Source: an uncultured Verrucomicrobiae bacterium
GTDB lineage: Bacteria; Verrucomicrobiota; Verrucomicrobiia; Limisphaerales; DASXHY01
NCBI GenBank assembly: GCA_963699145.1
Contig: OY969416.1
Span: 4,254,456-4,318,455 of the forward strand
DNA length: 64,000 nt
Direction of reading: 5' to 3'
In this document: positions 30,720 through 46,044 of the stretch, piece by piece
How the letters are laid out: every line of letters begins with the position of its first letter
Numbering within the stretch: position 1 is the stretch's first letter
Notes under the pieces: model-generated
The model's input: the letters and a program-made list of their open reading frames with translations, nothing else
Database searches by the model: none
Told to the model about the DNA's origin: nothing
Made by a program: the position numbers and the translations under genes

Positions 30720-32375
30720 CTACGCAATCGCTGTCGAAGCCAATTCCTCACGCTTCGGCGTTTCGCCGGTATCCAGTTTGCCGTAATCCAATTTGATGAT
30801 CCGATCCGCCACGTGGAAATATTTGTCGTCGTGCGAAATCACCAGCACGGTTTTCCCGCGCGCCTTCAATTCCGGCAATAGCTGCGTGTAGAACACGTCC
30901 TTGAATAGCGGATCCTGGTCGGCTGCCCATTCATCGAAAAGATAAAACGAGCGATCTTCCAAATACGCCGTGAGGAGGGCCAGCCGTTTCCGCTGCCCCT
31001 GCGACACCGCGGTCGTCGAGAGCACACCGTCCTTCACTTTCACTTTGTGGCTCAGATGCAACTGGTCGAGATACGTCTTCGCCTGTTCATCCACATTCCG
31101 TGCGTGAATGCCGAGCAGATTTTCGAACAGATAAAAATCCACGAACACCGCCGAAAAAAGCTGGCGGAAATCGTCGCGGTTTTTATCGGTAACCGGTTTT
31201 CCATCGAGCCGAATCTCACCGCTTTCCGGGACGTAAAGTCCGGTGATGATTTTTGCCAGCGTCGATTTGCCACTGCCGTTTCCGCCCACCAAAAACACCA
31301 ATTCACCCGGACGGAATCGCAGATTGATCGGCCCCAGCGTAAAATGATTGTCCTCATTCTCGCGATGATACGAGTGCCTCACATTGACGAGTTCGAGATT
31401 CTCAAACGTGATCTCTGTTTCATTCTGGTCAATGGCGCAGACTTCCGTGGCGCCTTCCTCCAGCGAGACACCCAGTTCATTCACTTTTTCAAACGAAACA
31501 TTGGCGCGGCCAAACAATGACAAACTGCTCATCACACCGGCGAGCGGCCCCATCAAATAAAGTGTCGTTAACACGTAACCCGTGAGCGTTTTCATGCTGA
31601 GATGGAAAATCGCCGGCAGCAAAAAGAGAATCAAGCCGATCAGCGTGAAAAACAGAAAATGACTCCAGTTCTGCGCCGCGACGAATCGCACTTCCGCGGC
31701 CACGTTGTGTTTCTGGAAGGCCTCCGTCGTGTTCTGCACGTTCACATTGAGAAAAGCCCCGCGGCGATTGCGATGCAATTTCAGTTCCTTGATGCCTTCG
31801 GTCAGCGCGCGGAAATAACCAAACAAACGATCTTCCTCCTCGCGCGCCGCATTCAAATGATGAAACGCGCTGCGAACCATCAATCGATATACCAGCGCGC
31901 CCAGCAAAACCAGCACGCACGCGCCGAGCAATACTTTCCACGAGAGCCATCCGAGATACGCCGCGCCGCCGAGCAGCATCGCCAGGTTCACAAACACAAT
32001 TGGAATCGCGAGCAACGCCTGCGTGATGTTGAAAACATCGTCCGTCAACGCCACCAGCAAGCGTGGCGTGCCCAGTTCCTCCAACTGGCGCAACGGCACT
32101 GTCAGAATTTTGCGAATCAATTCACGGCGCAAATTGGACACCGCGCCTTGCGCAAAACTGACCAGCAACGCCTGCGAAATATAAGTGGTAACAATTTTCC
32201 CGATGCCCACCGCGATGAATGCCCACATCAGAGCTTTCGTATGGTGCTCGGTCGTCAACGCGGCGGTCGCGAGCGCGATGATGCCCATATTGCAGGCGCC
32301 GCTTAACAGCGCGGTGCCGGTCGTCACGACCATCATTCCGCGGCAGGTTCTCCAGATAAATTTAAGCAAGTTCAT
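30720..32375 (-). CDS. Cyclic-peptide export ABC transporter (SyrD/PvdE/YojI family, fused TMD-NBD)
   Basis: Likely start is MNLLKFIWRTCRG (ATG 32375, overlapping the NRPS 3' end by 14 nt). An N-terminal 6-TM domain is followed by an NBD with Walker A GGNGSGKST, signature VSQGQRKRLAL and Walker B FYLFDEWAADQD. Confidence 0.9.
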   Translation of the reverse strand: MNLLKFIWRTCRGMMVVTTGTALLSGACNMGIIALATAALTTEHHTKALMWAFIAVGIGKIVTTYISQALLVSFAQGAVSNLRRELIRKILTVPLRQLEELGTPRLLVALTDDVFNITQALLAIPIVFVNLAMLLGGAAYLGWLSWKVLLGACVLVLLGALVYRLMVRSAFHHLNAAREEEDRLFGYFRALTEGIKELKLHRNRRGAFLNVNVQNTTEAFQKHNVAAEVRFVAAQNWSHFLFFTLIGLILFLLPAIFHLSMKTLTGYVLTTLYLMGPLAGVMSSLSLFGRANVSFEKVNELGVSLEEGATEVCAIDQNETEITFENLELVNVRHSYHRENEDNHFTLGPINLRFRPGELVFLVGGNGSGKSTLAKIITGLYVPESGEIRLDGKPVTDKNRDDFRQLFSAVFVDFYLFENLLGIHARNVDEQAKTYLDQLHLSHKVKVKDGVLSTTAVSQGQRKRLALLTAYLEDRSFYLFDEWAADQDPLFKDVFYTQLLPELKARGKTVLVISHDDKYFHVADRIIKLDYGKLDTGETPKREELASTAIA

Positions 32376-35300
32376 GTGACAAAGTTTTTTGGGTTGAGTT
32401 GGATGCGGGCATGGTCTCGACGAGGCATTCCTCCATTTGTTCGGCGAGGAATTTAACGTTCGGCTCGACAAAAATATTTTCGTGCGAGCCCGGAATGTGT
32501 TTCACATCCACGCCGCCGTGCGCGAGTTTTCCCCAGCCGAAATCGTCCGCGAAGGAACAAAAGATCGGCTGTCCCCGCGTGCGCAGCAAGGTGACGTGCC
32601 CGGCATAGGGGCGTTCGATGTGAGCCACGAGCGCGTTCAGGTGAATTTGCCAGAACTTCAGTTCGCTCTCCGGGAAATGACTGACGTCAATGACTTCGTC
32701 GAGGTCAACCTTGCCCGCATTCTTTCCGCGGCTGAATTTCGCAGCGAGCTTCCGCCCCAGCACCCGCGCCTTTCGCACGATGTATCGCCGCTGTTCCCGC
32801 GGTTCGAGCATGGTCACGAAATCCTTGAGCCAATAATAAAAATTGCGCGCGAAGCGATAATGGAACGTCGGCCGCCACCACAAAAGCCGTTCGTAGCCGG
32901 CGTTCGAGGGCGAGGCGTCGATCAACAGCAGTTGCGCCACGCGCTCACCTTGCGAACGCAATTGGCGCGCCATTTCGTACGCCACATTCCCGCCGAAGCA
33001 ATAACCGCCGAGGAAATACGGCCCCTGCGGCTGCAACGCGCGCACTTCCTGCAAATAAAACCGCGCCATGTCCTCGATTTGATCGTATTCGTCCAGGCCC
33101 ACTTGGCCACGCGATTTAATGCCGTAAATCGGCTGCTCCAGCGGCATGTGTTTGGCCAGGTTCGCGTAGCCCCAAAGGACATCGCCACCGGCGCCATGCA
33201 CCAGGAACAGCGGCGGACGCGAACCTTTCTCGCGCACGGGCACCAACACGGAACGGCGCCCATTCTGGTTTTCATCGGCGAGGCGCGCCAATTCCTCAAT
33301 CGTCGGCGCCTGGAAAAGCGTCACCAACGGCAACTTGTGTCCCGTGATTTTTTCCAGCTCGGCAAACAATCTCACCGCCAGCAACGAATGGCCGCCCAGG
33401 TCAAAAAAGTTATCCGTGACCCCCACCCGCTCGACCCGCAGCAACTTTTCCCAAAGCACGCAAATTTTCTTTTCGCTCTCCGTGCGCGGCGCGACGTACT
33501 CCGCCTTGGCGCCGTGACGCATCTCCGTTTTCCCTTCCATCGCCTGATGAATCCGCATCGGGTCGTTCAATCCCATGGCAATGGAGCGGCAGCGGTCAAA
33601 TTTGCGTCCCTTCGCCGGCGAGGATGTGGAATTTTGAGCCGACGCAGATTTGTCAGTTTCAACCATCGGATCCGCATCCGCGTTTTGCGAATTGAAAGCG
33701 ACTTGTGCGGCAAATTCAGCCGGGAACACGTAGACAAAACCGCCGTTCAGCGCCTGCTTAAAGGCCGCGCCCACGCTCTGCAGAAAATCGAGCGCCGGCT
33801 TGTTCTTCGCCGAAGGATGAAAATGCACGTTCACGCTGCGCTTGTTTTGTTTGAGCGCAATATTTCCGAGATGCGCCAGCATGGCATGCTCCACGCCCCG
33901 GCCCAGCACCCGGCAACTCAGCAGGAAGGTATCCACATCCAGCGCTTCTCCCACCGCCTCACAAACCGCCACGCCCACCAATCCGTAATCACCAAAACGA
34001 TCGCTGACCGTTACCGTCAAAAGGCTCGCGTGCATGGCGAGTTGCTGGATCTCAGCCTCAGTGCGCCGAATGGTCGTCACGTTGAATTGATTCGTGCGTT
34101 GAGTCAGTTGCGAGACGCGCGCGACCTGCTCGGCGGACATCGGCGCGATCTGGATTTTGAGATTCAATCCCGCAATGAAATCCGCCAGGCTGCCCGCCTG
34201 CGCGCGCAATTCCTCGCGTTGCTTGCCCTCGCGATACATTTCGCCGCGCCGCGCGTCTTCCGCCGTGACTTTGAGAATATCAAACGCCCAGCTATGCTTG
34301 AGGAATTGCGGAATGTCCGCCGGATTCTCCGGCAACTGCAGCGTCAACACGCCCGGACAATTCGCCTCCACCTCCGCGCATTCCACTGGGTTATCATCCA
34401 CGAAAATGAAACTGTCGAGACCGAGATTCAGCTCCTTCGCAATCGACTTGATGTTCTCCGATTTCGGCGACCAATTCACGCGCCACGCGGCGAAGTGCTC
34501 ATTCCGCAACGGCATGTCGAGCCGTTGCGCGAACACTTCCCGCACGTCCTCCTCGCTGTTCTTGCTGCAAACCGCGAGCAACCGGCCCGCGGCGTGTTGC
34601 GCGCGCATAAAATCCTGCAACGCCTTGCGCGGCGCATCCAAACAAATCCCCCGCGCGCCGTCCTCGCCGCACACGCCGCCCCAGAGCGTCTGGTCGCAAT
34701 CCAGCACGATCACCTTGTGCGGCGCTCGCTTCAGCGCATGGAACCGGCGCGCCATCATCGTCGCCAGCGCCGTGAAAAACACCGGCGTATAAGGAACGCA
34801 ACCCAGCTCATCACCGCTGGCATCATAAAACTCTTCGACCGGATACGTCTCGAGCAACTCCTTCGCCGTCACTGTGTAAACGCCGTCCAATTTTTCCAAC
34901 CCCGCCACAATCGATTTCTCGATCGCTTCAAATTGGCCGCCCTGCTGCTGTTTTCCCGGACACAGCATCACCAGCATCGGCGTCGTCAAACGCGTCGAAG
35001 CCGCTTTGATGGCCGAAAGAAATTCCTGCGCGCCGCGTTCCACCTCGGCCGCCGTTCCGGAATCGCCGCCTAAATCCGCCACTCGCAGCAACACAACATT
35101 GGCCCCGCGCGAGTTCCTCGCCAGAACGCTTGCGGGATCGAGCAATTGCTGGAACACCTGGTTGAACGGCGCAAATTCAACATCAACCGGCAGTTCCAAT
35201 TCCTTGATCCAATACCGCAACGGCTCCTCGATTGGTTCGGCCGTGAAGGTCGCCGCGATGGCAATTTTTTCTTCGCGCGCGTTTGCCACTGCGGGCTGCA

Positions 35301-45817: not shown

Positions 45818-46044
45818 TATGCGATCGAATTGCCTGAGAGAGATTTTCGAAATTGTGAGGAACTGGAATTACTACGCGGCGTCGCCACGAACTCGGAAAT
45901 CTTCGTGACGAAATCCAATCGGTTCGCCTTGGCCGCGAGTTCGTGCTGAAACGCTCGCCACCGCACCACAAAAGGGGTCGGGCGAGCCCGGAAAAGCTGC
46001 GTTTTACCGATCAAATCGGCCTGGTTTTCAACGTTGTTTCCCAT
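45817..46044 (-). CDS. Hypothetical 75-aa ORF abutting the NRPS start (TAATG overlap)
   Basis: MGNNVENQADLIGKTQLFRARPTPFVVRWRAFQHELAAKANRLDFVTKISEFVATPRSNSSSSQFRKSLSGNSIA has no recognisable family and lacks MbtH signature tryptophans. The only support is the stop/start overlap with the NRPS. Confidence 0.3.
   Translation of the reverse strand: MGNNVENQADLIGKTQLFRARPTPFVVRWRAFQHELAAKANRLDFVTKISEFVATPRSNSSSSQFRKSLSGNSIA

Follow-up and report, generated by a model that had tools for sequence, protein, structure and literature searches.

In a 64,000-nucleotide stretch of DNA from an uncultured Verrucomicrobiae bacterium (contig OY969416.1; hereafter, the window), a gene at 32362-45817 on the minus strand encodes a nonribosomal peptide synthetase (NRPS) of 4,484 amino acids once one T is deleted; as assembled, it is read as two open reading frames (ORFs). 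The corrected protein comprises 13 domains in the order C-A-T-TE-A-T-C-A-T-C-FkbH-T-TE, where C, A, T, and TE denote condensation, adenylation, carrier, and thioesterase domains, numbered by type along the protein. This synthetase is real, conserved, and uncharacterised. We regard it as an unusual member of an established enzyme class and not as a new kind of system, because each of its unusual elements has a precedent and the family is widespread in metagenomes. Its internal thioesterase (TE1) carries a conserved Cys-His-Asn set. We tentatively propose, with a little less than even confidence, that the synthetase consists of two fused assembly lines, in which TE1 passes the chain of the first line to the second, the terminal thioesterase (TE2) releases the product, and a neighboring pump exports it. 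If TE1 does move the chain onward, it would represent a new way of joining building blocks in peptide assembly lines, and engineers would gain a compact case in which the lines are already fused in nature. Uncultured soil Verrucomicrobiota and Acidobacteriota commonly carry the family, and hardly any natural products have been characterised from these phyla. The predicted product is a small peptide-glycerate ester that would be exported and could matter ecologically. Should TE1 be an ordinary release domain, the locus would still provide a clean genome-mining target, if one of routine interest.

The domain order was first read in a preliminary description of this DNA, made from the sequence alone, by joining the two ORFs across a single 1-nucleotide frameshift. 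Pfam and NCBIfam searches recovered the same 13 domains in one frame, including the complete thioesterase in mid-protein and the FkbH-like domain in place of an A domain (Table 1). ORF1 contains C, A, T, TE, and part of the second A domain, and ORF2 contains the remainder of that A domain followed by T, C, A, T, C, approximately 600 amino acids without a Pfam match, T, and TE. The Pfam scores were 393-630 bits for C, 407-460 for A, and 58-165 for PP-binding (the single T of ORF1 and the three T of ORF2 summed), with E-values of 1e-90 to 1e-190 for the locus domains, far beyond chance. The core motifs expected of a modular type I NRPS (HHxxxDG, the A-domain cores, GGxS, and GxS/CxG...H) are intact except in C2, which reads HGxxxD. 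C2 lacks the catalytic second His, and its earlier assignment as a C domain holds by homology only. The FkbH stretch, which gave only weak phosphatase matches in Pfam, scores 312.7 bits with TIGR01686, for which the cut-off is 146.65, and is full-length, spanning profile positions 3-322 of 323; the HAD-IIIC model TIGR01681 is also matched (68 bits against 35.75). It carries DCDQTLW (DxDxT) and LSCRVLG with its conserved Cys, and T4 follows. The 190 amino acids ahead of its phosphatase part correspond to the N-terminal extension (NEX) named and described for FkbH-like proteins (PMC12304814). A tblastn search of the 64 kb with the window's own C, A, T, TE, NEX, and FkbH domains found no further NRPS domains outside the locus. 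As previously stated, no MbtH, phosphopantetheinyl transferase, or tailoring genes appeared in Pfam scans of the window's larger ORFs.

Table 1. Features of the synthetase locus (window coordinates).
Feature	Coordinates	Strand	Remarks
ORF1	41255-45817	-	1,520 amino acids
ORF2	32362-41277	-	2,971 amino acids
Docking-like N-terminal motif (GKTKRALLAERLRK) ahead of C1	45737-45778	-	KRxLLxxRLR; window reads KRALLAERLRK
C1	44393-45733	-	HHIVSDEWS; no carrier domain upstream in cis
A1	42893-44332	-	specificity code DAFFMGGTFK
T1	42608-42820	-	FFDLGGHSL
TE1, internal thioesterase	41783-42556	-	Cys1164 in GGYCFGG, Asn1191 at canonical acid position, His in PGVHE
A2, holds the frameshift	40162-41635	-	specificity code DIENVGTVIK
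TTTT run with 1-nucleotide frameshift	41298-41301	-	falls within domain A2, after core motif A2 and before core motif A3
T2	39862-40083	-	FFDLGGHSL
C2, condensation-like	38497-39810	-	HGVACDSIS, without catalytic second His
A3	37009-38430	-	specificity code DLFNNALTYK
T3	36727-36933	-	FFELGGHSL
C3	35332-36663	-	HHSISDGWS; putative former of the ester bond to glycerate
NEX, N-terminal extension of the FkbH unit	34720-35289	-	kept with FkbH in all loci
FkbH	33757-34719	-	HAD phosphatase part DCDQTLW and acyltransferase part LSCRVLG
T4	33271-33480	-	FFDLGGHSL
TE2, terminal thioesterase	32437-33225	-	Cys in GGYCFGG, Asp in LIDASP, His in PGSHE
ABC exporter	ORF 30720-32471; 30720-32375 from ATG at 32375	-	551 amino acids, fused permease-ATPase

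Relatives were sought with an alignment of the C-FkbH-T-TE end in a set of genomes limited to one per species; the scan yielded 80 loci, whose domains were mapped by tblastn with the window's own domains. The closest are a metagenome contig with 94% nucleotide identity (L001) and two soil Verrucomicrobiia bins with approximately 78-88% protein identity (L004 and L009), all three with exactly the 13-domain order. These nearest sequences place the source of the window in an uncultured Verrucomicrobiia bacterium. The order recurs in L005, in one ORF and with an upstream gene ending A-T. L083 is split into separate genes, [..A-T][C-A-T-TE-A-T-C-A-T][C-FkbH-T-TE][ABC]. Simpler forms also occur: L002, L003, and L006 have no A2-T2 and only the C-terminal half of C2, and L007 (Acidoferrum) and L015 (Pedosphaera) have no C2, reading C1-A1-T1-TE1-A3-T3-C3-FkbH-T4-TE2. 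Because these simpler relatives keep C1-A1-T1-TE1 joined to A3-T3-C3-FkbH-T4-TE2, with C2 truncated or absent between them, two units are constant, one line that ends in TE1 and another that ends in C-FkbH-T-TE2, and their order never changes. The two halves are fused or adjacent, in the same order, in Verrucomicrobiia, Acidobacteriota, and other bins, and the architecture is a conserved family in soil metagenome genomes rather than a one-off. In L033 (10247-13918) and L072 (13526-15940), the order is T-TE-NEX-FkbH-T-TE, with a TE at the position occupied by C3 in the window. A homolog search across the TE1-A2 junction returned mostly short A-T-TE proteins and a handful of fragments spanning the junction. 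The possibility that the internal TE is an artefact of two neighboring genes was rejected, as the L004, L009, and L005 proteins run uninterrupted through TE1 into A2.

Selection on the synthetase was estimated as the ratio of nonsynonymous to synonymous substitution rates (dN/dS) by the Nei-Gojobori method, comparing the window with L001, L004, and L009 per domain and per side of the frameshift. The per-domain values were about 0.05-0.16, including those of TE1, A2, T2, and C2, and none exceeded 0.19. The His-less C2 is itself under purifying selection (dN/dS 0.11-0.13). Its motif position reads HGVACD in the window, HAVACD or HELAVD in orthologs, and HEIAAD in P0006, so that the second His is gone in every close ortholog, whereas the more distant L083 has an intact HHIAAD in the C domain after A2-T2. 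The view that the decay of C2 makes A2-T2-C2 dead remnants is not supported, given their dN/dS values of 0.07-0.18.

Both thioesterases have a Cys nucleophile (GGYCFGG) instead of Ser, with a Cys-His-Asn set in TE1 and a Cys-His-Asp set in TE2. In TE1, Asn follows beta6 and a conserved Asp lies in the beta7-beta8 loop (ADYGW); in TE2, the residue after beta6 is Asp. Cys, Asn, and His are present in TE1 of the window and of all 10 orthologous loci. The TE2 orthologs all have Cys and Asp, with His wherever the match extends that far (the L001 match ends before it). A library of 1.84 billion representative proteins was searched for internal TEs at least 48% identical to TE1; the 16 representative proteins found, up to 4,515 amino acids in length, all carry Cys/Asn/His. 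Four long ones (P0241, P0242, P0243, and P0245) combine this internal TE with a terminal Cys/Asp/His TE, and the terminal TE of the fifth long protein, P0244, is Ser/Asn/His. An AlphaFold model of TE1, with a predicted local distance difference test (pLDDT) score of 89.8, places Cys at the nucleophile elbow, Asn directly after the strand that usually bears the acid, and His after the last strand. Given that Cys-His-Asn is also the set of papain and of the acyl-transfer enzymes FabH and chalcone synthase, TE1 is probably an active TE with a specialised role. T1 is closest to T4 (53%) and TE1 to TE2 (49%), a pattern that indicates a putative duplication of the T-TE unit. Among solved TEs, only Pks13-TE, an acyl transferase, aligns to TE1 along its full length. 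A very large set of A-T-TE proteins of approximately 900-1,000 amino acids (P0131-P0240, P0261, and P0302) also carries this TE type; they derive from Verrucomicrobiota and Acidobacteriota metagenomes, and several are labelled "aspartate racemase" by JGI.

In vioprolide, corramycin, and cystomanamide biosynthesis, FkbH loads glycerate and the preceding C domain then forms an ester (PMC8949500, PMC10099666). Based on the FkbH family annotation and the vioprolide and corramycin work cited in PMC10099666, the FkbH domain of the window would yield glyceryl-S-T from D-1,3-bisphosphoglycerate or 3-phosphoglycerate. The specificity codes of the A domains were read by reference to GrsA. We tentatively take the A1 code to be aliphatic (Val/Ile-like) and the A2 code to be nearest the Lys type, and the A3 code is presumably of the Ala type. 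One and the same A3 code was read in seven family members; L006 gave none. In L015, the A domain feeding C3-FkbH (8489-9946) has the code DVQFIAQVV, and since this is Pro-like rather than DLFNNALTYK, the amino acid esterified to glycerate would differ in that locus. Beyond the family, NEX-FkbH-T-TE also occurs as a stand-alone protein in many Planctomycetota, cyanobacterial, and other genomes, including 11 of our loci in which no C or A domain lies nearby on the same strand (L025, L032, L034-L037, L039, L041, L042, L049, and L050). The TEs of these proteins probably transfer glycerate to some acceptor, because mere hydrolysis of glyceryl-S-T would be futile.

According to the proposed scheme, line 1 (C1-A1-T1-TE1) and line 2 (A2-T2-C2-A3-T3-C3-FkbH-T4-TE2) would be fused head to tail. 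A1 would load an aliphatic amino acid onto T1, and C1 would join to it a donor supplied by a separate NRPS protein. On line 2, A2 would charge T2 with a possibly basic amino acid and A3 would charge T3 according to its Ala-type code; their coupling would fall to the His-less C2. FkbH would take phosphoglycerate, remove the phosphate, and place glycerate on T4, after which C3 would esterify the T3-bound acyl group to a glycerate hydroxyl. This ester and release by TE2 are expected because the FkbH module is terminal here and the preceding C domain makes the ester in known modules. Rather than hydrolysing the line-1 chain, TE1 would take it onto its Cys and hand it on to line 2. The accepting nucleophile there would be the free amine of the aminoacyl unit on the following carrier domain or a spare glycerate hydroxyl. 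TE2 would then release the joined peptide-glycerate product, which the exporter would pump out. The reading of two fused lines draws on the paralogy of TE1 and TE2 and the likeness of T1 and T4, as with FrsA-TE and FrsG-TE. A transfer role for TE1 is hinted at by the halves remaining joined across phyla, by the decay or loss of the C domain beside TE1, by the TE replacing C3 in L033 and L072, by the conserved Cys-His-Asn set, and by the full-length match to Pks13-TE. A bolder extension, which we consider unlikely but not far-fetched, is that TE1 belongs to an undescribed TE class with a Cys-His-Asn set that takes over the job of a decaying C domain and hands the chain to the next carrier-bound unit. 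The widespread soil Verrucomicrobiota and Acidobacteriota family would then make glycerate-terminated depsipeptides through TE-mediated elongation, outside the current rules for NRPSs.

Several points weigh against the two-line scheme. All chemistry assigned to the synthetase is deduced from its sequence, and because a full-text literature search for the three A-domain codes found nothing, the substrate calls are tentative. The closest solved relatives of TE1 are the releasing or cyclising TEs AB3403, Skyxy-TE, NocB, and EntF. Moreover, TEs with Cys/Asn/His also close stand-alone C-A-T-TE, A-T-TE, and T-TE proteins and occur as free TEs; the type is not bound to an internal position, and TE1 could perform simple hydrolysis. 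Although A2-T2-C2 is under selection, the His-less C2 leaves the route from the second to the third amino acid unexplained. In addition, the donor protein for C1 was not found in the window by tblastn with the window's own NRPS domains, and the synthetase gene is frameshifted in the assembly.

The releasing character of its relatives raises the question of whether TE1 is an ordinary hydrolytic or cyclising release domain, with line 2 making an unrelated aminoacyl- or dipeptidyl-glycerate and the fusion being accidental. The complete nucleophile/His pair of TE1, its fold nearest releasing TEs, the existence of stand-alone C-A-T-TE proteins with the same TE type, and AB3403 as a self-contained C-A-T-TE protein with a Cys TE are all consistent with two independent products. 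Nevertheless, in Verrucomicrobiia, Acidobacteriota, and other bins alike, the halves are fused or adjacent in one order and accompanied by one exporter, and an accidental fusion would not be expected to last at a dS above 1 with dN/dS near 0.1 throughout. The invariant replacement of Asp by Asn in TE1, and not in TE2, further points to a specialised function, and we give this explanation a small chance. A different possibility, improbable though less so, is a single colinear line in which TE1 acts in a C domain's stead, so that T1-TE1-A2-T2 mirrors T-C-A-T and the amine of aminoacyl-S-T2 attacks the acyl-Cys. The His-less C2 would then couple the second and third amino acids, C3 would add glycerate, and TE2 would release a single chain, linear or cyclic. 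The two-line scheme includes this as a special case, with the acceptor fixed as the next carrier-bound amino acid. It accords with the A-T pair that always stands directly after TE1 without an active C between (C2 being truncated, absent, or His-less), with the TE in place of C before FkbH in L033 and L072, and with the whole line being one polypeptide in L004, L009, and L005. Carrier-bound nucleophiles also attack TE-bound chains in iterative TEs, such as those of gramicidin S and enterobactin. However, a TE as a routine in-line elongation catalyst is not known, and a 2022 review of rule-breaking NRPSs contains none. Furthermore, in L083 the C domain after A2-T2 has an intact HH and line 2 resembles a normal self-starting line, and the same TE type also ends stand-alone proteins.

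Two further alternatives concern the integrity of the gene and the donor of C1. The junction of ORF1 and ORF2 splits the second A domain between the AGGAY and YTSGSTG motifs, and removing one T of the run at 41298-41301 restores a single ORF, as the preliminary description had supposed. If the extra T, with its stop 23 nucleotides later, were genuine, A2 would be destroyed and this strain would make no full-length enzyme; relatives without A2-T2 show that the module is dispensable in evolution. However, it is the single lesion across 13.4 kb. Contig L001 has TTT at the site, with ...TEVLSELNVQG... of the window in register with its ...NAILSELNVQD..., and the orthologous ORFs of L004, L009, and L005 are unbroken (4,524-4,537 codons). 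The dN/dS downstream of the shift matches that upstream (0.11 and 0.12, respectively, against L001, and 0.08-0.10 on either side against L004 and L009, with 0.09 on both sides for L004). An AcrB/RND-type transporter gene in the window (2300-5404, minus strand) has at least two frameshifts in its last ~300 codons; Pfam covers profile positions 1-751 of 1021, and the C-terminal part runs on in two other frames, a likely sign of an error-prone assembly or of a second pseudogene. The nanopore contig L001 is whole at the window's shift site and broken at three other places. Given the unbroken orthologs, a dN/dS of about 0.1 on both sides, and the frameshifted AcrB-like gene, the synthetase frameshift probably arose in assembly or by a very recent mutation and does not mark an old pseudogene; the chance that the strain carries a pseudogene is slight.

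C1 has no carrier domain upstream in the window, L001, L004, L009, L007, or L015, and a donor in trans, by lipoinitiation or from another synthetase, had been proposed. Lipoinitiation would make C1 a starter C domain that N-acylates the first amino acid from a fatty acyl-CoA or acyl-ACP, giving a lipopeptide, perhaps fed by the PlsY-like and FeeM-like neighbors. The genes for a PlsY-like protein and a FeeM/aminotransferase follow the exporter in the window, L001, L004, and L015, and FrsA, the precedent for a side-chain line, has a starter C (PMC7794379). By comparison with solved structures only, C1 is of the elongation type (approximately 335 bits with Txo1/Txo2, 265 with TycC6, 117 with the C domain of AB3403, 80 with the CDA starter C, and 67 with EntF). 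Elongation C domains match it far better than do the starter C of CDA and the C domains of EntF and ObiF, which accept aryl groups. A docking-like N-terminal motif is common to C1 of the window and of L003, L006, and L083, where orthologous C1 domains (53-54% identity) stand behind upstream ...A-T genes; it also occurs on the stand-alone C-FkbH-T-TE protein of L083. No PlsY/FeeM linkage exists in L002, L005-L007, L009, or the P0002 contig. Because C1 is elongation-like and shares this N-terminal motif with orthologs behind ...A-T genes, its donor is more likely another NRPS protein outside the window than a lipid. Thus, the trans donor is retained with another synthetase as its favored source, and lipoinitiation, with 80 bits for the starter C against ~335 for elongation C domains and a docking-like N-terminus, appears very unlikely.

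No characterised pathway with the 13-domain order was found in the literature, in agreement with the initial impression that the architecture is unlike any such pathway. Nor did literature searches yield a characterised match for an internal TE with more modules behind it, for FkbH from Verrucomicrobia or Acidobacteria, or for a terminal C-FkbH-T-TE. The nearest precedents for two lines are FR900359 (FrsA with FrsD-G) and salinamide (Sln9), in which two NRPS lines, each with a TE, are joined by a transesterifying TE, FrsA-TE and FrsG-TE being paralogs (PMC7794379). The window resembles them in having a one-module C-A-T-TE line beside a longer line with its own TE, a paralogous TE pair, and a possible free hydroxyl acceptor on the longer line. 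However, its lines form one polypeptide with the side-line first, C1 is not a starter C, and TE1 has Cys-His-Asn. If TE1 has a transfer role, its acceptor would be a small peptide-glycerate and not a macrocycle. The fit to FrsA and Sln9 is only partial, because the lines are fused and C1 is elongation-type. Tandem TE-TE NRPSs (lysobactin, teixobactin, and Pseudomonas lipopeptides; PMC8949500) also have two type-I TEs per synthetase, but both are C-terminal behind one carrier, whereas those of the window are separated by nine domains, three of them carriers.

The FkbH module shares with those of vioprolide, corramycin, and cystomanamide the use of FkbH for A, glycerate placed on the next T, and a preceding C that must esterify (PMC8949500, PMC10099666), as well as the layout of NEX, HAD, and acyltransferase parts with DxDxT and SCR motifs. 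In contrast, the known modules start the line behind FAAL-ACP, and the module of the window is last, preceded by A3-T3, fed by an aminoacyl or peptidyl donor, and followed directly by a Cys-TE. The locus lacks the FAAL-ACP-C-FkbH-T initiation arrangement, and the FAAL type appears in distant loci only (L018, L020, L021, L026, and L030; 36-43% identity). Among Cys-TE systems, AB3403 of Acinetobacter baumannii (PDB 4zxh) has the four-domain order of line 1 and a similar motif (GGWCFGG against GGYCFGG), and it ranks first among structural matches to the TE1 model and third among sequence matches. Unlike line 1, AB3403 is stand-alone and has Asp at the usual acid position (PMC11298585), and its C domain matches C1 only weakly (117 bits). 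The Cys-TEs of ObiF1 and SulM form beta-lactone and beta-lactam rings (PMC6668435, PMC11298585). Like TE1, they have a Cys nucleophile and no acid residue at the usual post-beta6 site, their catalytic Asp lying in the loop after beta7, and they make small products. Nevertheless, neither is among the TE1 sequence matches at E <0.001, and the Gln-Cys-Asn motif of SulM is absent from the window TEs, which read Tyr-Cys-Phe. The A1 code is aliphatic rather than that of a beta-hydroxy or beta-amino substrate, and TE2, which would meet the glycerate beta-hydroxyl, keeps an ordinary Asp. With no sequence match, different motifs, and an aliphatic A1 code, the locus is not a clear example of the ObiF/SulM-type ring-forming TE.

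The exporter predicted to serve the synthetase scores 519.3 bits with TIGR01194, the model for cyclic peptide export ABC transporters, whose cut-off is 286.2; the match spans profile positions 4-547 of 554. It carries ABC_membrane and ABC_tran, as in SyrD/PvdE/YojI-type transporters. Its likely ATG at 32375 overlaps the NRPS stop (TAA, 32364-32362) by 14 nucleotides, in line with the preliminary description. In every related locus with downstream sequence, the exporter directly follows TE2. The flanks are of the housekeeping kind, as described before, with some qualifications. One side carries apt (above NCBIfam cut-offs), a sigma-70 gene that resembles rpoD without reaching the RpoD cut-offs, and genes for a zinc peptidase and prolyl-tRNA synthetase. 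The other carries a ROK kinase, a PlsY-like gene just below its cut-off (28472-29137), and, overlapping the latter by 4 nucleotides, a gene at 26835-28475 (minus strand, 546 amino acids) that fuses a FeeM-type N-acyl amino acid synthase (residues 21-154) to a PhnW/AepZ-like class-V aminotransferase (residues 195-531). The PlsY-like and FeeM-like neighbors were left out of the cluster, their linkage being confined to the window, L001, L004, and L015.

Elsewhere in the window, a PIN-domain (VapC-like) ORF at 59238-59669 on the plus strand has a small possible antitoxin ORF just upstream (region 58950-59669), and the pair is flanked by the genes of a class-I fumarase, with its N-terminal part encoded at 57990-58952 and its C-terminal part at 59677-60252. 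Three other unusual genes lie on the plus strand: a PAP2 phosphatase fused to a PMT_2 glycosyltransferase (10821-13154), a ComB-like 2-phosphosulfolactate phosphatase with an N-terminal extension of approximately 200 amino acids (13473-14774), and a bacterial homolog of the lipase maturation factor LMF1 (62152-63909).

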